A DNA stretch of 64,000 nt from Protoeuglena noctilucae (Eukaryota), in the NCBI GenBank assembly GCA_958009085.1, contig OY253678.1:62001-126000 (forward strand). The letters are read 5' to 3'. The notes below the pieces were generated by a model, which did not search any database, was not told the origin of the DNA, and saw only the letters and a program-made list of their open reading frames with translations. The first letter of the stretch is position 1, and each line of letters opens with the position of its first letter. Made by a program: the position numbers and the translations under genes. Below are positions 9,529 through 53,030 of this stretch, piece by piece.

Positions 9529-10543
9529 ATGGAGAAAGCGGAGGATACGTCGCAGTCCGACCACCTACTCGGTGGCGCGTCGTCCACTCCCGCAGGCTTG
9601 GCCCGGCCGGGCAGCGATGTAGAGCCCGTTGCTTCCCCCTCCGGCCCAGCCGCCGAGGTCTCTGCAAATCGTCAATCAACCTGGGCGTCCCCGTCTGGTC
9701 AAGGATCGCTCCGGTGAGCGCGGGCGCGGGCCCCAGCACTGTTGCATAACGTCGCCCGTGGCATCAGCTCGCAGCCCCGCCCGCCGGCCGCAGCGCCTGG
9801 GCCGCGCGCACGTTCGCCGCGGGAGCCAACGTCCTCCTCCCCGTCGCCGTCACCTGGGCGATCGTCGCCTTCCTCGATGGCTTGTTCAGCCCCATCATCT
9901 CGCGCCTGTTCGGCGTTCGGGTCTTCGGCCTGGGAATCGCCAGCGCCGTCGCCGTGACCTTCGCGGTGGGGCTCGCCACGTCGTCCATGGTCGGACGGTG
10001 GCTGTGGGGCGTCCTCGACGCATTGCTCGCCGCCGTGCCCCTCGTCAGCACCGTGTACGGGTCCGCCAAGCAGATTGCTGCGGCCGTGTCGCCGCAGGGG
10101 GAGTCCGGCAAGGCCTTCCGGTTAGTGCGGAGGGACGCGTGACCGTCATCGATGTCGTGACAGCAGTGCACAGTTGCGACCATCCCCACGCCAGCGCTGC
10201 CGGCCCCCGCAGGGAGTGCGTGGCCTTCAGCCACCCCCGCGCAGGTCACCTCACGCTGGGCTTCGTGACCGCCGAGCCCGTGGTGGCCGAGGCAGGCGGG
10301 ACACCCTCGCGCTTTGCTGTGGTGTTCGTCCCCACCAACCACGTGTATCTGGGGGACCTCCTGCTGGTGCCTGCATCGGCTGTGCGCCGCACCAACCTCA
10401 CCGTGAGACAGGGGCTGGAGACCGTGCTGTCCTGCGGGGCCGTGGCGCCCGCGAACCTCGTCCTGTCAGCCTGGGCGCCGACGCAGCCCACGACAGAGCC
10501 CACGAGACCAACGCAGCCTGCACCCGCTCCCGAGAGTGTCTGA
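9529..10543 (+). CDS. COV1/LCV-like DUF502 membrane protein
   Basis: FSPIISRLFGVRVFGLG..., VPLVSTVYGSAKQIAAAVSP, HPRAG..GFVT, VFVPTNHVYLGD are characteristic DUF502/COV1 motifs; stop TGA at 10541-10543. Confidence 0.85.
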
Positions 10544-10724
10544 CTGGCCCGTTCCGGCGCGCAATGTTCAATGCCGCGGGCGCAAAAGGAGAGGGTGAAA
10601 GGGGGCTTTACTGTCAGCATAGCAACTGCAACCGCCGCCTGGGTGGCACTGCTGGGCGCTCGAGGCCAGATAGCAAGCAGGGTCATCCGCGCAGCCTTGT
10701 CTACAGGAGGGGATGCGAGCAGGG
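10537..10724 (+). repeat. Direct repeat copy 1 (~190 bp) on the left of the kinase-WD40 segment
   Basis: TGTCTGACTGGCCCGTTCCGGCGCGCAATGTTCAATG...GCTTTACTGTCAGCATAGCAACTGC...GGCGCTCGAGGCCAGA...GATGCGAGC recurs at 17065-17261. Confidence 0.95.
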
Positions 10725-11798
10725 TAGGGTGGGCGCTTAAACTGGAGGAGGTGTGAGCGTCGCGTGGACAGTGTGCTGGTTCTAGCGCGGCAAACGCTGT
10801 GGGGAGTGAGATGTAACCACGTGGGTGCAGTTGTTACCTAGCACTATGAGAATCAAGCGTTAAAGTCGGAGATCACAGCTTTGTGCTCTTGTCAGACACG
10901 GCGCTTGGGGCCAGAAAGCCGCTTTCGACGCCGTGACGCTTGTGAAGTCGAATGCGATCTTCAGCTGCGGCGCATTTATCGTCGAGTGTGCGCTCTTCAA
11001 GCGTAAATCCGACCCAGAAAACCACAGCGCGCGTGGATAGAAGACAAGGCAAGAATTCAAAGCAGCTGGCCGTAGATCGCATGTTATGACACGTCTCTGG
11101 CTGTCTCCGGGGCCAGGGAGAGTGCTAGCGAGGTAGCACCGCCCCAGCATCTGAACAAAGTTGACCCTGGGGTCCGAGCTCGGCGATCGGACATTTCCTG
11201 CTTTGCTTTGGGATCATGTTACTGCCTTTGTTCGCGCTCACACCTGCGAGGTGCCCGTGGGCGCCAGGCAGCCAGACGCGGGCCCTGACCTCCTCGCGCT
11301 TGCCGAAGGCCCTCTGCGCCTGGTCACGCGACCCGTCCTGCTTTTAAGCATGTTTACGAGTGCAGCTTCGAGATAGACGTTGGATGACAGGGCCATTGGC
11401 GCTTGATACCCCTCCCCGGCGGTAGCACGGCGCTGAGCATGCCAAGGTCTGCCGTGCGCGCAGACGGGCCGAAGAGGCGCCCAGGGCTTTCCGAAACGTT
11501 TGCAGCAAAGTCTGCTCATCTGCGCGAGTCTGCAGGATGGGAGGCGGGGCCAGCAAGCGGTCGCGGAGGTGGGCGTGTGATTTGCATTGCGCAGAGGAGC
11601 TGGCAAGCAGCGAACACGACGCGCAATCACCGCGTACTCACTGCGCCTTCTTCTCGCAGCCGACAGCGTCGCTCCGCTCCTGCGACCCCTGCACATGCAC
11701 CACCCGTTGCGGCGAGCCATGGGACCGAGACGCCACGCGGAGGTACGAATCCACGGCCATCTCCTCCCAGAGGCTCCGCCAATCGCAGCGGGGGATGC

Positions 11799-14700
11799 AT
11801 GTCGTCCATCGGAGAGTCTCTCTCGCCTGCAGGGGCGGCTGCATCGCCAACCAGCGTGGAGGCGAAGGCAGCACTGGAGGTGGGCCCTGGCAACGAGACC
11901 TCATCGGAATTCCTGGCGTCTGTGTGGGCCATGCAGGCGCTGGTGGGGAGCGGCGGGGCGCTGGACGGCGTCGTGGACAAGGGCGGGGCCGGGGCGGAGG
12001 ACGTGGCGCGGGCACGGAAGGCCATTGAGCGCGTGCAGCGTGCCCTGCAGGGGGTGCCGGGCCTGAGTATGCTGGGGCCCGTGTGGGAGGTGGCCGGTGT
12101 GGTGTTTGGGCTGTGCGCCCAGGCGCTGGCCAACCGCCAGAACTGCTACCGGCTGGCGCGGTGCGTGCTGGTGGTGGCAACGCGGCTGTCGGCCATGGAT
12201 GGGCACGTGCTGGCGGGGAGCAAGGTGGCGGTGGAGGACCTGACGAAGAGCCTGGAGAGCGCGAGAGAGACGGTGCAGGTGAGAGCCCACGGGCAGAGAC
12301 CGGTGGGGCACAGCTTGACCCCAGGCTTGCAGCTGCCTGTCGGAGGGGAGGACATGCGAGACCCATTGATGCGCCTGCAGCGGTACTGCGACCGTGGCAT
12401 GCTGGCCAAATTGCTTTTCAGCACGGCGCATGCGGAGAGGTTCGTGGTCCTGCACCGCGACCTGGAGGCCAAGTTCCACGTGCTGGCGAGCGACGTGGTG
12501 CTGATGGGCGGCAGCGACTACGCGGAGGACGAGAGGCTGCGGGAGGCGCTGCGGCGCGTGGCGGGGACAGACGACCCCAAGGCCCTCGCGGCCCTGGCGC
12601 ACGACGAGGCCAAGGTGGAGGCGGTGCTGGCGGCGCTGTCGGTGTCGGACCAGGCGGTGGTGGCAGTGGTGAACGCGCACGCGGACCGGCAGTTCCAGCA
12701 GCAGGGGTCGCTGATCCGGCGCATGTTCGAGCAGCAGCGCGACGCCTTCCAGGACATCGCGAGGCAGCTGGCGGAGCACCGGCACAACGGGACGCAGGGG
12801 CCGGTGGGCTTCGACGGCGAGACAGCTCGGCAGGGTTGCGCGGAGTGGTCGCGGGAGGTGGTGGAGGCGGCGACAGGGGGCTTTGAGCCTTCGCGTGTGG
12901 TGGGCAAGGGCGGGTTTGCGGAAGTGTTCGCCGGGGAGGTGCATGGGGGCTCCAAGGGCGCGGCGCTGCCAGTGGCAGTGAAGCGGTTCCTGGACAGAGC
13001 TGACGCAGACGACGTGGCGCGGCAGATGGCGACGGAGGCGGAGCTGCTGTCGGCGCTGCGGCACCGGCACGTGGTGCGGCTGCTGGCCACGTGTGCCGAG
13101 CCGCCCTGTCTTGTCTACGAGCTGTGCCGGGGGGGCACGCTGGAGGAGCGGCTGGAGGGCAAGCATGGAGGCCTGTCCGCTGCCGCGCGGCTGCGGGTGC
13201 TGGCGGAAGTGGCCGAGGCGGCGGCGTTTCTGCACTCGGCGACTGGGCGCGCGGGGGGCGCCAAGCTGCAGGGGGTGGTGCACCGGGATATCAAGCCGGA
13301 CAACATTCTGTTGACGGCGGACGAGGACGATGCGGAGGCGCGGCTGGGGGACTTTGGGACGGCGCGGGAGGAGAGCGAGCAGGCGCGCGTGACGCGGGTG
13401 GTGGGGACGTACGTGTATGTGTGCCCGGTGTACATGCGGACGGGGCTGGTAGGGCCGCAGACGGACGTGTACGCGATGGGGGTGACGATTGCGCAGGTGG
13501 CGGCAGGGTGCCGGGGGGTCGACGTGCTTGCGGCACTGGCACCGGGGGGGGAACGGGAGCTGGCGGCGGACGCTGGAGCGGGGGAGTGGGTGGCTGGAGT
13601 CTTCGAGGAGTGCGTGGGGTTGGCGCGGTGGTGCATGCTGCAGCGTGACGGCGGCGCGGCGCGGCCGGACATGCGGGCGGTGGCGGCATACCTGCGTGCG
13701 CTGTGCGTCGTGGTGACGATGAACCAGGCGGGGCTGCTGGACGCGATGCTGGGGGAGCTGAGGAAGCGGCGCGAGGAGGTGAGGGCGGGTGTGCAAGAGG
13801 GAGCGGCAGTGTGTGCGGGGCAAGGCATGGCGCACGCAGTGAGTGGGACTTGTGCGTGGCTGGACGCGCGGTGATGTCGGTATGCATGGCCTCTGGACGC
13901 AGGCGTTGTGGGCGGCTGTGAATGCGGGCCAAGACATGTGCGAGTGCAGCGTGTGCGGCAAGAAGAGAAGCACGTACGAGGTGGTGGTGTGCTCGGAGGG
14001 CCAGCACCGCATCTGCGGGTCGTGCCTGGGGCCGCGGGCGCTGGTGCTGGCGGCGCGGAAGGCGGCCTTCACGGAGGCGGGACACCTCCGATGCCGGGAG
14101 TGCACGGGGCGTGCGTGCGAGGGGGTGCTGGCATACGTGGACGTGGCGGCGAGGCTGATGGAGGACGGAAGGAAAGCGGAGGCGGCGCAGTTCATGGATG
14201 CGAGCCGGGGGCTGACGGACGCGGTGCAGGGGCGGGACCGGGGCGGGGTCGGCGAGGGAGGTGAAACGGGGGAGGGGAGAGTGCCGGGGCCACAGGGTGC
14301 GAGAGAAACCAGTCATGCAGAGCGGGTGGTGGAGGTGAGGGGGAGCGGTGCATGCATGCATGCGGGCGCGACAGAAGTGTTGCGCATGCTCGGGCATTGT
14401 TGTTTCGAGGTAGCGGCAGCGCGCATGTGGTGTAAGGGTGGTGAGCATGTGGGTGTAATGGTGCGGGTGCTCGCAATCAGCCATTGATGCGTGCTCAAGT
14501 GGACGTGCTGAAAAGAGGTAGGATTGCGTGGTGGCTGCAGGGCGGGCAGGATGAAGATCTCAAAGCTGCAGTGGAATTCATCCAACGACAGAGCGTCCGG
14601 GAGGTATTAAACGCGGCCACTGGAGGACTCGTGCGCACAGTGTCCAAAGACTCAGACAACGATAGAGCCTCTCTTAAATCCTTACCATCTTGCACGGTGA

Positions 14701-16505
14701 AGTCGGTGGCCTTCTCCCCCGACGGGCGGTGGGGGGCGAGCGGGTGGGATGACAAGACGGTCAAGCTGTGGGACGCGGCGACGGGGGAGCTGGTGCACAC
14801 GCTGTCTGGGCACTCACACTTGGTGAAGTCGGTGGCCTTCTCCCCCGACGGGCGGTGGGTGGCGAGCGGGTCGTATGACGAGACGGTCAAGCTGTGGGAC
14901 GCGGCGACGGGGGAGCTGGTGCACACGCTGTCTGGGCACTCACACTTGGTGAAGTCGGTGGCCTTCTCCCCCGACGGGCGGTGGGTGGCGAGCGGGTCGT
15001 ATGACGAGACGGTCAAGCTGTGGGACGCGGCGACGGGGGAGCTGGTGCGCACGCTGTCTGGGCACTCACACTGGGTGAAGTCGGTGGCCTTCTCCCCCGA
15101 CGGGAGGTGGGTGGCGAGCGGGTCGTATGACAAGACGGTCAAGCTGTGGGACGCGGCGACGGGGGAGCTGGTGCGCACGCTGTCTGGGCACTCGTATGGG
15201 GTGAACTCGGTGGCCTTCTCCCCCGACGGGAGGTGGGTGGCGACTGTGGCGACCGGGTTGTATGACAAGACGGTCAAGCTGTGGGACGCGGCGACGGGGG
15301 AGCTGGTGCGCACGCTGTCTGGGCACTCACACTGGGTGAAGTCGGTGGCATTCTCCCCCGACGGGAGGTGGGTGGCGAGCGGGTCGGATGACAAGACGGT
15401 CAAGCTGTGGGACGCTGCGACGGGGGCAGAGGTGCGCACGCTGTCTGGGCACTCGTATGGGGTGAAGTCGGTGGCCTTCTCCCCCGACGGGAGGTGGGTG
15501 GCGAGCGGGTCGGATGACGAGACGGTCAAGCTGTGGGACGCGGCGACGGGGGAGCTGGTGCGCACGCTGTCTGGGCACTCGTATGGGGTGAACTCGGTGG
15601 CCTTCTCCCCCGACGGGAGGTGGGTGGCGACCGGGTCGGATGACGAGACGGTCAAGCTGTGGGACGCGGCGACGGGGGAGCTGGTGCGCACGCTGTCTGG
15701 GCACTCGTATGGGGTGAAGTCGGTGGCCTTCTCCCCCGACGGGCGGTGGGTGGCGAGCGGGTCGGATGACGAGACGGTCAAGCTGTGGGACGCGGCGACG
15801 GGGGCAGAGGTGCGCACGCTGTCTGGGCACTCGTATGGGGTGTACTCGGTGGCCTTCTCCCCCGACGGGCGGTGGGTGGCGAGCGGGTCGGATGACGAGA
15901 CGGTCAAGCTGTGGGACGCGGCGACGGGGGCAGAGGTGCGCACGCTGTCTGGGCACTCGTATGGGGTGAACTCGGTGGCCTTCTCCCCCGACGGGAGGTG
16001 GGTGGCGACCGGGTCGGATGACGAGACGGTCAAGCTGTGGGACGCGGCGACGGGGGCAGAGGTGCGCACGCTGTCTGGGCACTCGTATGGGGTGAACTCG
16101 GTGGCCTTCTCCCCCGACGGGCGGTGGGTGGCGAGCGGGTCGTATGACAAGACGGTCAAGCTGTGGGACGCGGCGACGGGGGAGCTGGTGCGCACGCTGT
16201 CTGGGCACTCACACTGGGTGAAGTCGGTGGCATTCTCCCCCGACGGGAGGTGGGTGGCGAGCGGGTCGGATGCCAAGACGGTCAAGCTGTGGGACGCGGC
16301 GACGGGGGCAGAGGTGCGCACGCTGTCTGGGCACTCGTATGGGGTGAACTCGGTGGCCTTCTCCCCCGACGGGCGGTGGGTGGCGTGCGGGTCGGATGAC
16401 AAGATGGTCAAGCTGTGGGACGCGGCGACGGGGGAGCTGGTGCGCACGCTGTCTGGGCACTCACACTTGGTGAACTCGGGGGCCTTCTCCCCCGACGGGC
16501 AGTAG
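11799..16505 (+). CDS. Predicted MLKL-like 4HB + Pelle/RLK-type Ser/Thr kinase + RING + 14x WD40 protein (4 exons)
   Basis: ATG 11799. Introns 12279-12380 and 13779-13902 are phase 0, GT-AG. The third intron is either 14335-14540 (phase 0) or 14261-14499/14571 (phase 1); all keep frame. Kinase motifs GKGGFAEV, VAVK, HRDIKPDN, DFG, TDVYAMG. RING C-x2-C..C-x4-H-x2-C-x2-C..C-x2-C. The WD40 ORF ends at TAG 16503-16505. Fusion into one mRNA is inferred. Confidence 0.75.
14697..16502 (+). repeat. Coding tandem array: 14 near-identical 126-nt WD40 units plus a partial 15th
   Basis: Unit V[K/N/Y]SVAFSPDGRWVA[S/T/C]GS[Y/D]D[K/E]TVKLWDAATG[EL/AE]VRTLSGHS[H/Y][L/W/G]; unit 5 carries a 9-nt insertion (TVA). 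Confidence 0.98.
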
Positions 16506-17064
16506 TTGGCGAGGCAATAAGTATGTTGTTTTCTTTGCGATGGCGTCTGTGAGGCCGATGTTTGTTTTAGCTACAATGCACCCCCCCGCATCCCCACCTG
16601 CCACGACCCTAAGGGCACCAGCTGCAGGCACCGCCACCGCGACAGCACCATTTAGCTGCCCTCACCACTGGGCTCCTCAGCCCAACTGGAATCGCAGCCG
16701 TGTCTAGGCATGGTGGGCCGACCCCTCACGCGTACTGGTCGACCCTGGCCGTCAGCATGCGGCCCTAGCACTCCATGCCACTGAATTGCACAATATACGT
16801 TTGGGAGTAAAGGTGCAGGGGCAACGAGGGACACATTAGTGGCGCCGTGCTGGACCTAACCTCCAGGCCTACAGAGGCCAGCCGCACGTGCTTGTGGCAT
16901 TTTGCCCGGGTCGATGCGCCGTGGCGTGTGATCGCCTGCCTCAAAGGGCAACAGCCTGTAGAGGCTGTTGTGCGGTCTATTACCACACCCAAGGGCGTGG
17001 CGGTTCGTGGCTAGGGGGCAGGTTTTGTGTCTCGGTAGGCTCGCGTTGATCGCCGGGTTGACAC

Positions 17065-17261
17065 TGTCTGACTGGCCCGTTCCGGCGCGCAATGTTCAAT
17101 GTCGCGGGCGCAAAGGGAGAGGGTGAAAGGGGCTTTACTGTCAGCATAGCAACTGCGACCGCCGCATGGGTGCGTTGGGTTGCATGGCGCTCGAGGCCAG
17201 ACAGCATGCAGGGTCAGCCGCGCAGCCCTTGTCTTCTACCAGCGGCGATGCGAGCGCAGGG
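17065..17261 (+). repeat. Direct repeat copy 2 (~195 bp) on the right of the kinase-WD40 segment
   Basis: Matches 10537-10724 with a few substitutions and indels; ends ~12 nt from the rubredoxin stop codon. Confidence 0.95.
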
Positions 17262-17273
17262 CGCGTCGGTCTC

Positions 17274-18061
17274 TCACTGCATGGCGATGAAGTAAGCCCC
17301 CGCGGAGGCCACCGCCAGCGCCCCCACCACCAGCAGCGGCGTCACGTCCGCGTCCGCCTCCGCCTTGGTCCGGAACTTGCTCTTGGGCGCCGCGCACTCG
17401 GGGCACCGGTAGTTCTGCGGATAATGAGCACATTCGGTGAGCTATGTGCAACAAGTAACCGCTGCGCAGGGGGCTGCCATGCGATGTCAGGCACGCACCT
17501 CGGGGAGCGACGCAAAGGCCTTCCCACGGTTGGCGGACGGGTCGTAGACGTAGCCGCAATCACGGCAGACGTAGACCTCGGGGCCAGGCTTGTTGCTCGC
17601 CGCCTTGCCCTTGGCCGGGGCCGCCTTGCCGGTCGTCTTCGTCGTCGTCGCGGGCGGCGCCTCCTTCTTCTTCAGCAGGTTAAAGGCGCCCGCGGTCACG
17701 ACGCGCGATGGCGCTGCGGGACGGCCGATGGTCTGCGCAGCCGACGAGCTGGCGAGGAGCGCGGTGCGGGACCTGCGCGGGTAGCGGCGATCGGATACTG
17801 GTGAAATCGTGGTGGGGAAACGCCCGCCCATTGCGAGGTCTCGGGCGCACCGCGTCCTGGTTTCTGTGCATCTTTGCATATAAACGACAAAAATAAACGC
17901 GCAAGCGCGCCTGCAGGCGCGGGGGAGCCTCGTCGACGCCGCAGGCCGCGCCCGGCCTGCAGCAGCGTCCCTGGGCCGCCGAGCGCTCGGCCGGACGCTC
18001 CGGCAACGCAGTGATAGCGAGCTGTGCTTCTTGTGCGGCGCACTCACTGCAGGGACGCCAT
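17274..18061 (-). CDS. Plastid-targeted rubredoxin-like protein with C-terminal TM anchor
   Basis: Spliced model MASLQSRTALLASSSAAQ (transit-peptide-like)...YVCRDCGYVYD...LPE|NYRCPECAAPKSKF...LLVVGALAVASAGAYFIAMQ*; two CxxC motifs. Confidence 0.88.
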
Positions 18062-18253
18062 GGTGGTGAGACAGCTGTTCAACCGCGTCTAGGCCGTCGA
18101 GCAGGGGATGCGAGTCGAGCAAAGGGGAACAGGTTCGAACACGGGATGACAGACTGGCGCAGTACACGCGGCGGGCGCGCCTTTATAGGCAGCGCTGGCA
18201 CGCATCCAGCTGGCACGCGCTTTCTCGCGCCTGCCCATCAAGTTACGGCCTCT

Positions 18254-21200
18254 CTAGAGCTCCGCTCTCTCCCCGCGCGTCTCCTGGAATGCCGCCGAGA
18301 GGATCATCAGCCGACTGCGCACGTAGGGGAAGGCGTCCGCCACGGCGGGGAGCGTGCCCAGGTCGATGCCCCGCACCTCCTGCAGCGCAGTGGGGAATCG
18401 CGAGGTCCGCTCGGCGCGCCAGGCCCTCCACGCGCCTCTGCTGGCCTGTCTCATTAACTCCTCACCTCCTCCACCGCGCTGCGCTCGCCGCCGTCCCGCA
18501 GCGGGGCCGGGAACAGCCACGCCTCCCCCGTGGCGCGTATGAAACTCCTCGCGTCCTGCGCCAGGATCGCCTCCCAGTCCGTCTGCTCGTCCTCCGGGAT
18601 CGGACTGACCACGGGCATCCCCGCGGCCAGGAACAGCGCCAGGATGGTCGTGTATCCCACCGCAGCTGTCCCTCGCGCCAGGGGCATGAAGTTGTACCAG
18701 AAATAAGCGAACAGCAGAATGGACTCAGCCACCTCCTGCATGAGGTCGCTGCGGGGGAGCGGAGACGGGTGCAGGAGGGGTGCAGAGGGTAGGGAACGGT
18801 GGGGGCGCGATGGGCCTGTCAGTCACCACCACCCCCATCGCATTATGTCACCTACACCCAGATTGCCTTCTCTGCATGTCACTACAACATGTCACCTCCC
18901 CATAAATGTAACTACCACATACCACGTCCCCCACACATCAACACAACATATCACCTCCCCTGTGCATGTCACCTTGGCGCCCCCTCGAGCATGCCCCCCT
19001 TTCCCCTGTACCCTTCCAGCGCCACCATCCCCTCCACCACCCTCCCCCAGCACCAGGACAACTCCTCGTCAAAGTCGCGCCAGCGGGGGGGCGTCACGGG
19101 GGTGCGGATGCTGAACTCGAATCCATCGGGAACGTTGGGGACACTGGGGGGGAAGAGAGGGGTCACGAGAGATGAAAGAGTGGGAGTGGGTAGGGGTAGG
19201 TGCGGATGGGGGGAGTGAGAGGTGAGGGCGTGTGAGCATGGAGATGAGAGCACCTAACCCACACCCCCATGCATCCATGCATTGCCCACCCATGCCGTGC
19301 CCATCCATGCACCACCCATCCAATGCATCACCCATCCATCCATGCATCACCCCTCACCGCACGACTGTCAGCCGCGTCCCCTCCATGTTATGCCCCTCCC
19401 GGCTGGCGCTCCGCACGCGCACCACATTCCAGCAGTCCTGCCCCGCCACGCGCCACACGTCCCCGCACGTAGCAGCCCCTCTCACGGCCGACAGCTGAGA
19501 CTCGCTCAGGGGGATAGCGGCGTCCTGGCCGTTCGTGCCCCTGCGTGCGACGACGCAGTGCTGTCAATGCATCGTCACGCAGTGCAGTCGATGGCAGTTC
19601 GTTACCCATAGAAAGAGAGAAGGGACAGGGGGAGTTAGATGAAACTCGGAGTCATGGGAGCGCTACTCCTCTTCCGCAGCCCCACACCCCTCACACTCAA
19701 ACCCCAAACACATCCCATCACCCACCCACTCCCACTCCCCCTCCCCCTCCCCCTCACACCTGTCTTCCTCCACATCCACACACCACAACACACACCTCAT
19801 CACATATATCACCTGTCTTCCTCCACAATGACCTTCTTCAGCAGACCCAGCGCCCTCTCCGCCCAGTGGTAATAACGCACACACTTGGTCTGCCCGGTGT
19901 ACATGGGAGTGTGGGACCCGAAACCTCTCTCGAACTCTTCTCTCGGTAGCAAGTCCACCCAAACCACTTGGTCATTTGGCTCCGCAATCTGTCGCCAACG
20001 AACGATGACGTCCATCGCATCGCGCCAACCGAACGCGTGCGTGCCCTTGGGGAGAGATGAGGCCGTGGTTGCGTTTGCAGTGTTGCCTGCACTTGCACCG
20101 CCACCCGCACTGCCACCCCCGCTGCCACCCCCACTGCCACCCCCACCGCCACCCCCACTGCCACCCCCGCTGCCAGCCCCACCACCCCCCGCCGTCGCCG
20201 TTGCGTCCGACACCGCCGTCTTTTTTCCAGCGATGCGATCGGCCACCAAGGCCCGCACCGTCTGCGCCAACTCAATCGCCGCCAGCCCCGCCATCCGCAG
20301 CTGACGGGCGTTGGGGAGGAAACCCTGGTGGCGGTACTGCAGGGGTGGGGGAGATGGGAGGGGTGGGGGTGGGAGGGTGCGACAGGTGCACGCTCAGGAT
20401 GTCAGCTGATGTTGTCATGGCACACCGCCCATGCCCGGTCAGACCGTGACATCTAAAACATCATGAACTCCCATTATCGCCAATTACCTGGATGAGTGAC
20501 CCCAGGGCATCGGCGGCCTTCACCAGCGCCCTCCCCGCATTCGCGTCCACCGCCGCCGCGTCCAGTCCGGGCACAATGCCCTCCCCGGGCTCTGGCAGTT
20601 TCATGTCCTTCAGGGACTTGCGGCTTCTAGCACGCTGGGCGCCAGTCTGGGGGGGCAGCGGGGGGCGGGGTGGGAAAGGGGGGCCAGAAAGCGCCACAGC
20701 GAGTTTTCATGCACCCAACCAATCAAGCGGCAATGGATTTTTATGCAGTTTTATCCTCCCGATGTGGCCATGGCATACCAACTGCAGGTCGCATGTGCAA
20801 GCCACCCACAACTGCTGCTCCGTGCATAGTACTATCATAGTACTATCATCACATGCCCCCCGCATACCCCTCACCTCGGTGATGAGGGCGGGCGACGGCG
20901 GGAACTTCATGCACCAGTTGTGTTTGAGCCTCGGGTGCAGGTCCCTGTCGAAGCAGAAGTCCCAGGGGCGGCAGTCCAGGCGGCTGCAGAGGTACACGGC
21001 GAGCTCCTCCTGGTAGTAGGCCACGAACCTGAATGTATGGGAAGTGGAAAGAGTGTTACAAGTAGCTAACCAATTACTCCTGGTAATAGGCGACGAACCT
21101 GGGTGGATGATGTGAGGATAAGGAATGAATGTGGTAGAAGAGAGTAACGGCATGAACACAACAGACAGTACCAGCAACCTCTCCCACATTGCGTACACCG

Positions 21201-25125: not shown

Positions 25126-28100
25126 ATGACGAGCTATTACCCCCCGCAGCAGCAGCAGGAATGGCACAACCCGCTCGAAGGCTTTGATGCGGACCCGACG
25201 CAGCCGCAGCCCTACTCGGGGCGCCAGCGGGCCATGACGGAGATATTCCAACGAATCGGGAGCTCCCGGGTGCGCTGCGCCGCCGCCCCGCATCCCCGGC
25301 CCTCGTCCCGCTGCGGCATGCGTGCGGGGCGTGCCGTCGCGCGCCGCAGCGCATTGGCCGCCCCAACTCCTGGCAACTCAGAATCCCATCTCCGCGTTTT
25401 GACGCCGACGATGTCCCTCCGCGCGATGGCTCCGTGGCTACAGCCGAGCATGCGACGCACGTGACGTGTGTCCTGACCCCTCCCCCGCCTGCGCAGCTCC
25501 TCAGCGCCGCCTCGAATGCCGCGGAGAACATCATGGCTAATGTCCGGTCCGACGACATGGGCAGGTGCGTTTGCGGGATCTCCGCGCCGCTCAGGCGCCC
25601 CGTCTGCGCAGGTGGCAACGTCTTTCTCCGCCTTTCCCGCAGCGACGGTGGCCTGGGCTCCGAGATGTCCCTGCGGCACGCGCCCATGTCTCGTATCGCG
25701 GAGGAGAGCACCCCGCTTGGGCGCCTCCCGGCCCCTCTGAGCCGCATGAACAGCCTGATGGAGGCAGCGGCGGGGTCACGGGGCCAGACGGCGGTCGCGG
25801 CGATGATGGCCGCTCGCATGGCCTCCCGCGCGCGCCTGGCTCCCTCCGGACGCATCGCGCAGTCCGTGGACGGCGACGGGCCGCGTGCCGCGATGACCGA
25901 GGCGCTGGGCGGGAGCGAGTTGGGTTACCCAGCCAGCGCGGACCCCAGGCCCGGCACTGGGTCCCCCCTGCGCGTGGGCAACCGCAGCTTCCGCTCTCGC
26001 CCCGCTCTGTCGACGGACGGCATCGAGGGGATCCGAGCGTTTTTCGAATTGGCGGAGCGTCACCGGGACAATGCGGTGGCGGAGGCGAGGGCGGAGCAGA
26101 TGCAGCGTCACGAGAGCCGGAAGCGCATGGTGGCGGCGCGGACGCGTGAGGACGCGGAGAGGACGCGGGCGTCGCTGGAGACGTACCAGCGGGTGGTGCG
26201 GGCGGTGGTGCGGGTCCAGGCGCGGTGGCGGGGGTACGTGGCGAGGAAGCGGGCGGAGCGGGCGAGGATGCAGCAGGAGATGGCGAAGCTGCTGCAGGAG
26301 AACGAGGCGGAGCTGGCGAAGGAGCTGGAGGTGATCGTGAAGCAGGTGAGCAGGTGGGGTGAGGGTACATGTGTGGAGGGTGTACGGTGAGGGGTGGAGA
26401 GGCGAGTGGTGGGGGTTACACGGTGAGGGGTGGGAAGTGATCGTGAAGCAGGTGAGGGGGTGGGGATGGGTAGTCATCGCATAGCTATTGCCATTGACCA
26501 TCTACGCACCACCCCCCGTCCCCGCAACATGCGTCACTCTTCTCTCCTCCCCAGGACAAGGAGCGCGAGAAGCAGCGCAAGGAGGAGCGGTACAAGAAGA
26601 TCTTGCAACGACAGGTGTCGGGGTCCAGCGAGTACATACGGCACCTGGCGCGCATGCACACCGCCAACGGGCAGGCGAGCGAGTGGGAGGGGGATTGTGT
26701 GTATGTGGGGCGAGGGAGGGATGCATGGTAGACATGAGAATGCATGTTTTGTGTGTGACGCCCACAACAGAAAGTGGGACGACGCTAACACTAGGCGTCA
26801 ATACGTAGTCGTGCCACGCTGTGTTGTTTTGTACTGCATTGCAACACAACATTTTTTGCATCTCGTGTTCTTCATCTCATCTACTCTCATCTCGTTATTG
26901 TCCTTCAGGTGAAGGTGGAGGCGGCTGCCCGCCTGGCCCAAGAGGTGCTTCTGGCGGAGCGGAGTCAGGCGTCGGTGGGGCCGGTGAAGAGCGTGCTGCT
27001 GGGGGAGGACCTGGGGTTGGAGGGGAGCGAGGTGAGAGAGAGAGTGTGTGTGTGTGTGAGGGATGAGGGTGGTGGGAGTGGTGCGTTCTCATCACGTCAC
27101 TCACCTCCATCACTCACGCTTCCCTGCCCATGCCACTCACCACCCTTGCTCCTCGCACATTCAAATCCCCACCCGTCCCCACCCACGCAGGAGGCCCTGG
27201 CCCAGCGCACCAGCGGGGGCAGCCCCACCGCCCTCCACGCCCAGGCCAGGGCGCTGGAGTTTTCAAACAACAACGAGGATTCGAACTTCCGACCACCGGA
27301 GGGACCGCCCTTAGCAGCGTCCGCGTCGCTGCCGGCCATCGCGGGCGGCACATCGCATGCCATCGGCACCCCCACCCCCGCCGAGCGACTGGTTGCCAAA
27401 ATGCAGAAGCGGCAACTGGCGATTTCACGCAACGCGGCGCAGTCGGGGGGATACTTTGCGATCGAGGATCCGGGGCTGGGGGCGGAGGAGGGGGTGGGTC
27501 AGATGGGTGCGGTCACATCGATGTCCACCTCGCTGTCACCTAAGAGGGGTGGGAGGGTGGCGGTGCGGACGGGGCGCGCGTGGCTGGGCGCGGAGGCTTC
27601 CGCTGCGTCTGCCGCATCCGCCCCGGCGCTGCGGGCGGGCGCGGGGTCGCCGATTGCGGGGTGGGGCGGCGGGGTGGGTGCGGGTGCGGCCATCGTGCTG
27701 CCGCCCTTGGTGGGGGTCGAGGGGTCGCACACTGGGAAGCGGAGGGAGGTGCGGGCGCATCAGGCGGGATTACCTGTCACAGTGGGGGAGGCGGAGGGGG
27801 GGGTGGAGGGCGAGGGCGCGGGTGCGGGTGTAGAGAGTGCGGGGGTGGTAGCTGAGGCGAGGAGCAGCGCGCGGGCTGTGTCGCGGGAGAGGGGCGTGCG
27901 GGTGAGCTTGGAGGGAGTGCGTGTGGCAGAGAGCGGGGGTGTGGGGGCGGGGGTGCGTGTGGCTGGGAGTGGGGGTGAGGAGGGGGCGGAGAGTGGGGCT
28001 GAGGCGGTGCGGCGTCGGATGCGGGGTTTCACGGTGCCGGGAGGTTACATGGTAGAGGGGGTGGCGACGGGGGTGGTGAAGGGGCGGGGCGGGAGTGCGG

Positions 28101-29458
28101 GGGGGGGGGCGGGGGGGGCGACGGGTGTGGTGCGGGAGAGTGGGGACGATGGGTTGGGTGCTTGGGGGGACGAGAGCGGCGTGGAAAGCGGTGCGGCGAT
28201 GGGGTGGGGTTCCCAGGGTGTGGGTGGTGGCAATACGGGTGGCAGTGCGGGTGCGAGTGCAAGTGGCGGTGGGGGTGGCAATGCCGATGGCAATGCTCCC
28301 GCTGCGTTGCCGTCGCTGCGCTCTCGCCGCGGCCTCGCCAAAACGGTGTCGGTGTCTCGGGAAGTGTCTCTGGAGTCCGTGCCAGTGGCTGAGGTTTCGA
28401 GCAATGCCCTACCCGCCGTGTTCAAAAGGCGCAACAGCGTCCGGCAGCTGGGGCCGGCGGGGGCGGGGCTGTTCGCTGGGGGAGGTGGGGGTGCGATGGG
28501 CGCAGCGGCGGGGGTGGCGGGGGGTGTGGCGGTGCGGGGGGAGGGAGGAACGGCGGTGGGGGTGGCGGGGGTGCGTGGCGATGGGGGCGGGGCGGTGGCT
28601 GTGCCAGTGGGCTTTGCGCAGTTTGGGCTGGGAGAGGATGTGGTGCAGGCGCACGTGAGAGCGGGGGATAAGGGATCGCGGGCGCAGGGGGCGGCGATGG
28701 GCGGGGGCGTGGGGGTGGGCGTGGGAGGTCGGCCGTTGTCGCCCTCTGCAGTGCTGGGGAGGACATCGCCGGGGGGAGAGGCGGCGACGGAGGGGACGGG
28801 GCAGGGAGCGTGAGTGGGGGGGGATAGGGATGGATGGGAGATGTGGTTTTGGTTGTGGCTGCGATGTGGGTCGTTTGTGCATGGGATGGCGAATGACAAT
28901 GGGGGAGGTGTCATATGGTCAGTTGGACTGACCATTTACTTATCTCATGTATAGTTATCTTATGTTTTCATCATATGTGTAGATTTACTCATGAAATCCT
29001 AGTCCCATCTCCTGCTCGCAGTGTGTTGGTCCGTGCCATGTCGCCTGCGAGGTCACCGGAGGCATTGGCAGAGAAGACCATCGCCAAGGCTACAGCACAG
29101 GGGGGGGAGGAGACGGGGAGGGGGAATGGGGGAGGGGGGAGAGGGACTGGGGTGCGCAAGTGAGTGATGGGGTGGGGTGGGTGCAAGGGGGGCTGTGGTT
29201 GGGGTGAAGAGCAAACAAGCAGCTACCTTGCTGCCACCCCCACTGCCACCCCCACTGCCACCCTCACTTGCACCCCCCCTCACTGCCACCCCAACCCCCC
29301 AACCCCCCAGGGACAGGGACCCCTCGTCTGCCCCCCACCACATCCGCAAGCCCCCCCGCGGCACCCTGCTGCCACTCACAGCCGGCCCCGTGCACGGCAA
29401 AGACCTTTCAGTCGACACCCTCACGGCCCAGGCAGCGCTGAGGCTGCAGAAGACGTGA
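25126..29458 (+). CDS. IQ-motif, coiled-coil and low-complexity protein of unknown function
   Basis: IQ-like AVVRVQARWRGYVARK at ~26.2 kb within helical exons; long Gly/Ala-rich exon; ends approximate. Confidence 0.6.
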
Positions 29459-29697: not shown

Positions 29698-32600
29698 CTA
29701 CCACCCCACCCCATAAATCGCCACCACCACCCCCACCGCCGCCGCCGCCACCACGCCCGCCCCCGCCCGCACCGCTGGTGCATTTGACTCCACCAAAAAG
29801 GGATAGAGGTAGTCCGGAGGCACAGCCGGCAGCAGGGGAGGCGTGGACTTGGCCAGCTGAGCGGCCCTGCCTTGATCTAAGGGGAGATAGGTGACGGTGG
29901 ATTGGAGATAGAAAGTGGATGGGGTGGATGCGGGGAGGTGGCCGTCGGGCCATCGCCACGTGCCGAGTTTCCAGGAAACGCGGGCGGCCTCGATTTTCAT
30001 CTGGGGGGTGGACGCCACGCCGACCTGGGTCGGGGAAGGGGAGGGGGGTGGGAGTGGTGTTAAGGGTGGCAGTGGGGGTGGGAGTGGGGGGTAGCACCGA
30101 AAGCAACACACCACAATTCCATGCCCACCATCCCCACCCCTCCACTCTCATCTCTCACCTTGGCCGTGAGTATCTGCAGCTCGAACCCCACCACCGCGTT
30201 GACGCACGATTGTGAATCAACGTCCCAGGTCTGCGTGGCTGGGATGGCGTCCACAGTGACGGGCACCCAGTCAGTGATGTTCAGTGGGTCCGCGTCGCCC
30301 CATATGCCCAGGTAGATGGTCTGGCCGGAGAGGGGCAGGTTGGCACTGGGGGTGGGTGAGGGAGGGGGGGGTGTGTTGGAGGTGGTTTGAGGGGTGGAGA
30401 GGGGTTGAGCGGGAGAGAGGGTTAGGTCGGGTGGCTGTGAGGGCGGATGTGGGGGGCGAGCGGGGTGGCTAGGCTGCAGCAGGGGTCGTGGCAGGTTCGC
30501 AACAACCACCGGACCCAACCTCTCACTACCACCCCACCTCAACCACCCCACCACAACAAAACACCCCTACCATATCACCAAACAACCCCCCAACCCCCCC
30601 CACCAACCCCTCTCCTCCCTAACCCTCTCACTTGGTGGGCCCGAACATCCCGTGCGCAAACGACGGCGCGGTCCGCGCCACCCCCCCCGCCCCCGCACGT
30701 CGCCTGCAGCTCATCGACCGTCGCAGCGAACCCGCAACTCATAGAAGCGTCCATCCCAAACGCCACTGCAAGCGACGCGTTAATAGAGCACCGCCCGTCG
30801 GGACCAGCACCCGGGAAGGGCAAGCCCCGGGGGAAATTCGAAATTGCGCGGTGGTCCCCGGACTGCACGAGCGTCCCCGCCTGCACCGGGTACCCGGTCA
30901 GATACCCGGGGCGGCCCGAGGTGCCACGCGCACCCCCTTCCGACGCCTGCCGCCACTGCACGGTGAATCGCTGCCTCACCGCCCCCGCCCCGGTCGCATC
31001 CGCGGCTACATTCGTCAGCTGCACCGCTGCCGTGACGCTCTGCACCGCCCGGTTGGCCAGGTCGTAGGTGATCGTGATGTCGGCGGACGTCAGCACGTTA
31101 TCGCACGTGCTGCTGGATGCGTCCCACGTTGGCAGAGCGGGACTCGCGAGGGGCACCTCGGCGCCCGTCTGAGGGTCGATGTGATAGTACATTACGTTTG
31201 TGAGGGGCACGAGGGCGGAACGTGCTGTGGTGGTCGCCAGGCGGAGGTCGCTGACGCGGGTGTGGGCGAGGCCAGGGAAGGCAACCGCGTAATTCTGGCA
31301 GTTTGCTGACAGGGAGGGAAGCACGACATCGCAGGCGGCGTCGTCCGGGCGCTGCTCGACGCCGGCGGCGGTCGGGGGAGGAAAGGCGAGGGCGAACCCG
31401 ACCGGGGTGTCGGTGCAGGCGCCGCCGTAGAGGGGGGAGGGGACGGTGAGGATGCCGGCGGGGGCTGGGGGTGGAGAGAGGGGGGGGAGGGGGTGAGTGA
31501 GTGAGTGAGTGAGTGAGTGAGTGAGCGGAGTGTGTGAGTGGGTAAGTGTGTGAGTGGGTTGCTCGAGTGGGGGAGTGGGTGTGTTAAGGGAGTGGAATGT
31601 AACACTTACTTCCCTCACTCACTCACTTCTCACCAGCAGATGACACATACATGAATCCCATGCGCATTCCTGATACTCGCATCCACCCCCACACCGCCCT
31701 CACCTGCAGCTGACGTGTACATGGCCGGCACGGGGCTGCCCACCGCATAGGCAGAGGGGGCGTTCTGGGTGTAGGGGACAGGGCTGCCGAGGAGACCCGG
31801 GGTGGAGGCGTGGATGGCCTTGTCCAGCGCTGAGGCGGGGTCCTGGGGGTGGCAGTGGGAATGGGGGTGAGGGTGGTGTTGAGGGTGGCAGTGGGGGTGG
31901 CAGTGACAGTGAGAGGGTGGCAGTGGGGGTGGGAGTGAGGGTGGCAGTGAGAGGGTGGCAGTGGGGGTGGTAGTGCAGTCGCTGTGCCGCACTCGCCAAC
32001 ATCAACACCAACACTATCACTGTCAATATCAATGCAACTACCAGCAACCGCGTAAGTAAGCCTCACCTGTGGCAGTGCCGGGTCGAGGAAGTACGCCCCG
32101 AGCGCGGGGTTGTTGTCCCCAACGATGCACAGCAGTTGAGAGAACAGGTCGGTGCGGGCGTCCGCGCGGCTGACGGTGGCCAGGCCGCTGCTGGCGGGGA
32201 GGTTCACGGTGGCGACAGCTGATTTGGGCAGGCAGTAGGTGAGGGAGGGGCCGGGGGGACCCTCGGGAAGGGCGGCGGTGAAGGCGGACTTGTCGGAACC
32301 TGGGGGAAGGTTGAGTGAGAGAGGTGGGGAGTGGTGAGGGGTGAGTGGGGGTGGGGGTTGTGAGGTGGCGAGGGGGGTGGTGAGCGAGTGGGCGATGTAA
32401 AGCTGGATGGTATGTGCCAATGCAACCGAAGCAACGGCAGGGCAACGTAAAGAGCGCGGCAGTGTCACTGTGCTCTGCTACCACTGTGGCGCTGGGCTGG
32501 CCTGCGACGCTCTACTCTCCCCGCCCAAACCACCTCACCGGTGCAGTCCGGGTCGCAGTAGCAGTTGGCGTCGCACGCGCCGACGCGCAGATCGCACTCG

Positions 32601-51987: not shown

Positions 51988-52032
51988 GGATAGGGGTGGG
52001 TGGGAGTGGGGGTGGTGTTGAGGGTGGGAGAG

Positions 52033-52423
52033 AGGGTGGCAGTGGGGGTGGCAGTGGGGGTGGCAGTGGGGGTGGCAGGGAGGGTGGCAGTGAGGGTGGC
52101 AGTGAGGGTGGCAGTGGGGGTGGCAGGGAGGGTGGCAGGGAGGGTGGCAGTGAGGGTGGCAGTGAGGGTGGCAGTGGGGGTGGCAGTGGGTGTGGCAGTG
52201 GGGGTGGCAGTGAGGGTGGCAGTGAGGGTGGCAGTGGGGGTGGCAGTGGGTGTGGCAGTGGGGGTGGCAGTGAGGGTGGCAGTGAGGGTGGCAGTGGGGG
52301 TGGCAGGGAGGGTGGCAGGGAGGGTGGCAGTGAGGGTGGCAGTGAGGGTGGCAGTGGGGGTGGCAGGGAGGGTGGCAGTGAGGGTGGCAGTGGGGGTGGC
52401 AGGGAGGGTGGCAGTGGGGGTGG
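52033..52423. repeat. 12-bp minisatellite GGGTGGCAG(T/G)G(A/G), about 32 units
   Basis: Directly visible tandem array. Shorter copies of the motif occur at ~3350, ~20100, ~29230, ~31850-31970, ~40970, ~54040. Confidence 0.95.
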
Positions 52424-53030
52424 GGGTGATGGTGGCAGAGTGGGGGTGGAGCTGGCGAGAGCGCTGCGTGCCAATACAGCATGTACGGGCCACAGCAGGG
52501 GTCTTTTGTTGATGCCTTGCTCGGCTGGCCATAGCAGATTGAACGAAGCCCCATGTCACCACCCATCCTGTTCTCATCATTGCGCCTCGGCTGTTGTTGT
52601 GTCGGTATCACTGTTACAGAAGGATACCATCCCTCCTGTCCCCATCTCGCGTCTGGATGGCTTTGAAAAGGCGACGCTACGCTAGTGAACCATCAGCCAG
52701 CAGCCCGAAGCTCCCCCACGCCCCAAGCAGCGTACGACACCGCGACACTGGCGCCCGTTCCGACGCGGGGCATACCCACACTACGCCCCATGCCCCGCTT
52801 TCTCAACAGGGTGATCTGGCCTCGCTAGCTCCCCATCCCAGGCCTTGGAAAAGCGAAAGCCCCGCCTCCCCGCCACCCCATGGACTGATGTGAAACGCAC
52901 CCTTGGCCATGCACATGCGACGATCTCGCAGACTCCGCAACGCAGTTGGGATGAAGTGGCAAGGCAGCCATGCCACCCGATTCGTCCATTTTCAAATTCT
53001 CTTTTTTGAATTTCCCCCCTTGCCAGGCCC

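Follow-up and report, generated by a model that had tools for sequence, protein, structure and literature searches.

An unusual locus of the alga Protoeuglena noctilucae that probably joins a helical head and a kinase to a RING-like finger and predicted WD40 propellers

Among the closest described systems, MLKL proteins carry a head, a brace, and a kinase in this order, as set out in the relevant passages of bioRxiv 10.1101/681015, and the land-plant protein PhWD2/UPPER is, according to the corresponding passages of PMC10286513, absent from green algae. Here we describe a locus of the marine alga Protoeuglena noctilucae, which lies in a high-GC stretch of 64,000 nucleotides (nt) of contig OY253678.1; this whole stretch is referred to below as the window (58-71% GC per 2-kb bin). 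The locus is a real and unusual multidomain one, in which three open frames succeed one another on the + strand, from ~11.4 to 16.5 kb of the window. The first frame (open at 11388-13874) encodes the helical N-terminus and the Pkinase domain, the second has no Pfam family, and the WD40 frame is open from 14445, has its first ATG at 14487, and ends with a TAG stop at 16503-16505. According to the reading preferred here, which as a whole is tentative and falls a little short of an even chance, these frames belong to a single four-exon nuclear gene for one protein of ~1,380-1,420 residues, in which a helical head, a kinase, a zinc finger, and propellers follow one another and which would act by an MLKL-like mechanism. 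A preliminary description of the locus, made from its letters, had proposed the order head, kinase, Cys-rich finger, and WD40 array without a nucleoside triphosphatase, and this order is upheld by the analysis.

Domain content of the predicted protein

The Pfam Pkinase match spans nt 12885-13508, and the motifs GKGGFAEV, VAVK, HRDIKPDN, and DFG are intact. Because the glycine loop and the other three motifs are all present, the domain should be an active Ser/Thr kinase of the RLK/Pelle-IRAK-like type, unlike MLKL. Its best relatives in the PDB are ScRIPK (3.4e-29), BIK1, FERONIA, PBL2, CERK1, BAK1, and IRAK1/4, i.e., the nearest solved structures are plant receptor-like cytoplasmic and receptor-like kinases (RLCK/RLK) first and IRAK1/4 second, an order given by PDB sequence matches and not by a tree. 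These relatives agree with the Pelle/IRAK-type kinase named earlier.

As for the WD40 part, Pfam reports 14 stretches (E 1.2e-206), and Tandem Repeats Finder gives a period of 126 with 14.4 copies, 93% matches, and a score of 2943 at 14697-16505. The 14 units, 126 nt each, are all distinct, with mean identities of 93% for nucleotides and 88% for amino acids, which confirms the near-identical repeats of the preliminary description and places the array above the identity of 0.7 by which "highly repetitive" WD40s are defined in the relevant part of PMC5587647. Each half of the array holds 7 repeats and exceeds the cut-offs of seven-blade propeller families (for THOC3, 417.9 and 326.4 vs 305), which shows that the units are predicted to form two seven-blade propellers, also in line with what had been proposed.

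Amino acids vary among the units at 14 of the 42 positions, and synonymous variation is found at 4 codons only. Within the repeat, the multi-state positions 42, 2, and 18 are equivalent to R1-2, R1, and D-1, the contact hotspots of the WD40 top face (PMC3419727), and this correspondence favors the preferred reading. Two observations count against it, namely a ratio of nonsynonymous to synonymous substitution rates (dN/dS) among units of 0.84 and the presence of only 2-3 residues at each hotspot position. For the hot codons, the proportions of nonsynonymous and synonymous differences (pN and pS) are 0.24 vs 0.26. Either relaxed constraint or diversifying selection would give the dN/dS value, and neither is proven; the word "hypervariable", applied earlier to the array, is therefore dropped, although the variation does sit at the three top-face hotspots.

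Between the kinase and the propellers a RING-like zinc finger is probably placed. Its Cys/His pattern, C-x2-C-x11-C-x4-H-x2-C-x2-C-x22-C-x2-C, contains eight ligands in C3HC4 order with one gap outside the range (C-x4-H), as canonical RINGs have 1-3 residues between the third Cys and the His. RING-bearing clusters of the ESM Atlas score 0.82-0.85 for this segment. Besides the C-x4-H spacing, the zf-RING_5 match weighs against the assignment (E 0.21, 12 bits vs a cut-off of 27.9). Thus, of the C3HC4 RING proposed before, the ligand order is kept, and recognition by the Pfam RING model is not, the match being sub-threshold.

Regarding a switch NTPase, the spliced protein and all six frames of 11000-17000 are free of the GxxxxGK[ST] Walker A motif, and Pfam finds neither NACHT nor NB-ARC in the gene or among the 31 other large open reading frames (ORFs) of the window that were scanned. 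The absence of an NTPase of the STAND class (signal transduction ATPases with numerous domains), noted in the preliminary description, is borne out by these searches.

The identity of the helical head carries most of the weight of the preferred reading. Pfam MLKL_N (PF22215) is the best or only family for the head, with E-values of 0.0054 (read-through), 0.009-0.022 (exon 1), and 0.047 (whole frame). Of the 5 alignment members, 3 match the family: the sequence from the window itself and P0001 and P0005, two near-duplicates that represent a 70% identical paralogue (E 0.018-0.023, 15 bits). In the ESM Atlas an unnamed cluster ranks first for the head (0.93), and the clusters ranked second and third (0.92, with 187-192 shared features) have MLKL_N on 36% and 30% of their members; 6 matches carry the MLKL_N family set. 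On visual inspection, the pattern of the later MLKL helices seems to continue into the first part of exon 2.

Several results point the other way. The MLKL_N matches reach 13.6-16.7 bits, under the Pfam gathering cut-off of 27 bits for this family, and cover only positions 2-73 of the 142 in the profile. According to Pfam, the exon 2 part has no MLKL_N match, its helical linker belongs to no family, and the 45% identical paralogue P0003/P0007 is likewise without an MLKL_N match. ESM Atlas recognition is 2190 with a guide value of 2300, and PDB sequence searches with the head return chance matches only, with no MLKL or HeLo chain among them. Both AlphaFold2 models have low mean confidence (predicted local distance difference test of 41.9 and 39.4); helices are predicted in them, including those of the exon 2 linker, and their packing is unreliable. 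Taken with the evidence in its favor, homology of the head to MLKL_N appears reasonably likely, and the N-terminal helices are probably a divergent bundle of the MLKL_N/HeLo type with a brace-like helical linker to the kinase. From the MLKL/HeLo-like N-terminus of the preliminary description, the helical region stands, and its recognition as MLKL is reduced to a sub-threshold Pfam match to half of a profile.

Much of this also bears on another explanation, which we consider doubtful rather than improbable: an ordinary signaling or scaffold kinase, a eukaryotic version of the Ser/Thr kinase-WD40 fusions that occur frequently in cyanobacteria and actinobacteria, with no role in death or immunity and with a head that is a mere regulatory or oligomerizing coiled region. 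Association of kinases with WD40s and highly repetitive WD40s are known in prokaryotes and protists, as far as the relevant part of PMC5587647 goes, and both the position of the head below every formal threshold and the dN/dS of the WD40 units suit such a protein. However, no Pfam family scores better than MLKL_N (E about 0.01 for the whole library), the ESM Atlas lead is also toward MLKL_N, and the repeat variation is clustered at ligand-contact positions.

Gene model, transcripts, and relatives

The four-exon structure (Table 1) is favored by its three introns, all of which have G/GTGAG donors and CAG/ acceptors and are in phase 0; for intron 1 an alternative acceptor lies near 12333, which would make it 54 nt long. 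The GC content at third codon positions (GC3) is 0.87-0.95 over 12381-13778, drops to 0.6-0.66 within intron 2 (13779-13902), and equals 0.90 for 13903-14195 and 0.92 for 14697-16505. An in-frame ATG is located upstream at 11799, where the preliminary description had placed the start. GC3 is 0.70 for 11799-11930 vs 0.92 for 11931-12278, and the first residue of two paralogue fragments is the Met that matches 11931; ATG 11931 is therefore the more likely translation start, which makes the earlier one doubtful. The paralogue fragments also support donors 1 and 2, as they are similar up to the donor and divergent afterward: P0001 and P0003 align to the final VQ of exon 1 and diverge exactly at donor 1, and P0002, 56% identical over query residues 229-358, diverges just after donor 2.

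Table 1. Coordinates of the features discussed, in window positions.
Feature	Position	Strand	Evidence or remark
Upstream copy of ~200-nt direct repeat	10536..10735	+	Repeat search
Exon 1, helical region	11931..12278	+	GC3 0.92; likely start ATG 11931
MLKL_N-like stretch within exon 1	12075-12278	+	Pfam MLKL_N E 0.009, 16 bits
Intron 1	12279..12380	+	GTGAGA...CTGCAG, 102 nt, in frame, stop-free
Exon 2, first part, helical linker	12381..12884	+	GC3 0.95; candidate fourth helix and brace-like region
Exon 2, second part, predicted active protein kinase	12885..13778	+	Pkinase E 1.4e-32
Intron 2	13779..13902	+	GTGAGG...ACGCAG, 124 nt, phase 0
Exon 3, probable Cys-rich RING-like finger (13945-14103)	13903..14334	+	Cys/His spacing; 3' end uncertain
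Intron 3, best-consensus model	14335..14540	+	GTGAGG...CTGCAG, phase 0
Linker with degenerate partial WD40 unit (LNAATGGLVRTVS)	14541..14696	+	Coding status uncertain; GC3 0.52
WD40 array, 14 units and a 9-aa partial unit	14697..16505	+	Two predicted seven-blade propellers
Downstream copy of ~200-nt direct repeat	17064..17262	+	Repeat search

The junction between finger and WD40 array is the least certain part of the model. The coding-like signal of exon 3 weakens near 14250, other phase-compatible GT/AG pairs are present, and the real span of intron 3 may be from about 14224/14261 to 14572-14703. That GC3 is not coding-like at 14196-14334 (0.61) and 14541-14696 (0.52) weighs against the model as drawn. 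The linker may still be coding, because it contains a partial WD40 unit and the frame is open from 14445; the repeat finder places a copy with 72% identity at 14607-14906. TGTAA sites at 14431 and 14454, considered as a poly(A) signal, are uninformative, since both lie upstream of the unspliced stop.

It is at this junction that an explanation by two genes has to be weighed, one with the head, the kinase, and perhaps the finger, and a separate WD40 gene starting from ATG 14487. It can draw on that in-frame ATG, on a GC3 that is not coding-like from about 14250 to 14696, on the divergence of a paralogue at 14195, and on the fact that no bridging RNA contig is seen. However, the stop of the zinc-finger frame (14485-14487) shares its position with ATG 14487, so the intergenic space is nil and none is left for a separate gene; moreover, a strong phase-0 GTGAGG/CTGCAG pair is available together with the other phase-compatible pairs, and strand and GC skew are uniform across 12-16 kb. 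Two genes thus seem unlikely, and one continuous polypeptide chain across all exons is rather probable. Since no RNA contig spans any intron, this single chain is something we infer.

In favor of the four-exon gene, contigs of marine metatranscriptomes are 100% identical to exon parts over 11839-12102, 12857-13035, 13127-13389, 13472-13628, 15966-16047, and 16286-16373; contigs also match 16511-16900, downstream of the stop. On the opposite side, none of the RNA-library contigs spans an intron junction, and the one at 12354-12504 extends 27 nt into intron 1, which means that DNA or unspliced RNA is possible in those libraries. Contig cover is absent over 13608-13975 and 14344-14711, an absence that carries no weight as evidence. 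Two RNA runs and X4, a likely DNA run, have a loose end at 14195 in common, and this coincidence points to a paralogue diverging there.

Two side observations concern WD40-like sequence elsewhere. In X3, an RNA-library contig of 527 nt, a stretch resembling the 5' region (11520-11570) and a WD40-like unit (15373-15454) are linked by 220 other letters, which suggests that a differently built paralogue may exist. In the likely DNA run, word depth summed over 14712-16551 is ~10-25x that of the flanks; this is depth and not copy number, and as it is beyond the need of 14 collapsed units, the genome may contain similar WD40 units at other places.

Relatives of the gene are rare. An exhaustive homologue search yields only 3 real clusters among 1.84 billion representatives, all of them exon fragments, and a fourth match that is a spurious repeat protein. 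Among longer proteins the head has no homologue, and exon 2 has a single match, an unrelated kinase protein of 1660 aa; a profile search returns P0001 and P0003 only. The metagenome contig scan gives 166 pattern matches and 0 relatives, 2 matches in the viral contig scans are phage ORFs that contain the search pattern by chance, and none of 13 viral matches for the finger is a relative. As for the literature, full-text searches found no description of such an architecture in algae, which agrees with the earlier remark that no description of it was known; it is probably a new combination of known domains.

Surroundings in the window

On either side of the gene lies one copy of a direct repeat of ~200 nt. 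These are its only two copies in the window, about 92% identical and 6.5 kb apart; Rfam has no match for the repeat, which may delimit a segment that was duplicated or is mobile. This repeat is the starting point for a further explanation, namely a young, decaying, or non-functional chimaera in a duplicated segment bounded by the two copies, for which their identity and spacing speak, together with the very few relatives and the odd GC3 in the junction segments. However, GC3 is 0.87-0.95 in the four coding blocks, each of which is open, the catalytic motifs are intact, and exon-matching contigs are present in RNA libraries, so that we consider a chimaera of this kind very improbable.

Just downstream of the studied gene, a rubredoxin-like gene with at least 2 exons occupies 17274-18182 on the - strand. 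The match of its rubredoxin exon (E 5.9e-4) stays below the cut-off, and its tail seems hydrophobic by eye, as in the thylakoid rubredoxins of phototrophs. A CGLD27-like ORF (E 1.8e-14) is another gene of algal type in the window. At 26795-28810 (+) there is an open frame of 672 aa with no Pfam family; its GC skew is strong and resembles that of the gene described here. Tandem arrays of the 12-nt unit GGGTGGCAGTGA or its close variants, in both orientations, are found at 51998-52438, 20096-20182, and 31844-31979.

Possible mechanism and comparison with known systems

Under the preferred reading, the propellers would bind a ligand or a partner, and this binding would alter kinase activity or autophosphorylation; the change in the kinase would in turn free the helical head to oligomerize and act on membranes, as in MLKL, while the zinc finger might set turnover or recruit partners. 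Such a sensor-switch-executioner mechanism, as well as ubiquitin-ligase activity of the finger, is suggested by analogy alone, and a role in immunity, or in cell death triggered by virus or stress, would be a guess. The most far-reaching version, which is quite unlikely, holds that shuffling WD40 blades recognize a viral or non-self ligand, the kinase replaces the NTPase, and an MLKL-type bundle kills the cell, all in one STAND-less chain that belongs to a small and fast-evolving paralogue family.

Regulated cell death is central to bloom collapse and is molecularly poorly defined. Should the head prove to be a genuine MLKL/HeLo bundle, joined in one chain to an active kinase and a repeat sensor, membrane-attacking death domains could be coupled to ligand sensing with no NTPase in between, and there would be a candidate gene for this process in unicellular phytoplankton. 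If it is not, the locus would encode a lineage-restricted kinase-WD40 scaffold.

In comparison with animal and plant MLKL, the predicted algal protein shares an N-terminal helical domain, a helical linker, and a kinase fold, with MLKL_N as the best Pfam match. Unlike MLKL, it keeps VAVK, HRD, and DFG and is not a pseudokinase, and it adds a zinc finger and 14 WD40 units; the MLKL_N match is sub-threshold, and a shared bundle fold is a probable feature at most. With the HNWD group of fungal NOD-like receptors (HET-E, HET-D, and the NWD family), as presented in parts of PMC1805685 and PMC2873952, it has in common an internally conserved WD40 array with top-face variation. In contrast to these receptors, it has no NACHT or Walker A, its N-terminal module consists of a kinase and a helical head, and positive selection is not established on its repeats (dN/dS 0.84). 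The bacterial Ser/Thr kinase-WD40 proteins of the PkwA type, in the relevant part of PMC5587647, likewise have near-identical WD40 units behind a kinase, whereas the algal gene is eukaryotic with introns, has a kinase of the RLK/IRAK-like type, and carries the extra helical head and zinc finger. Finally, PhWD2/UPPER of land plants contains the same three domain types, RING, kinase, and WD40, and, according to the passages of PMC10286513 on its architecture, has them in the order RING-kinase-WD40, whereas the algal protein has a helical head in addition and its finger probably comes after the kinase.

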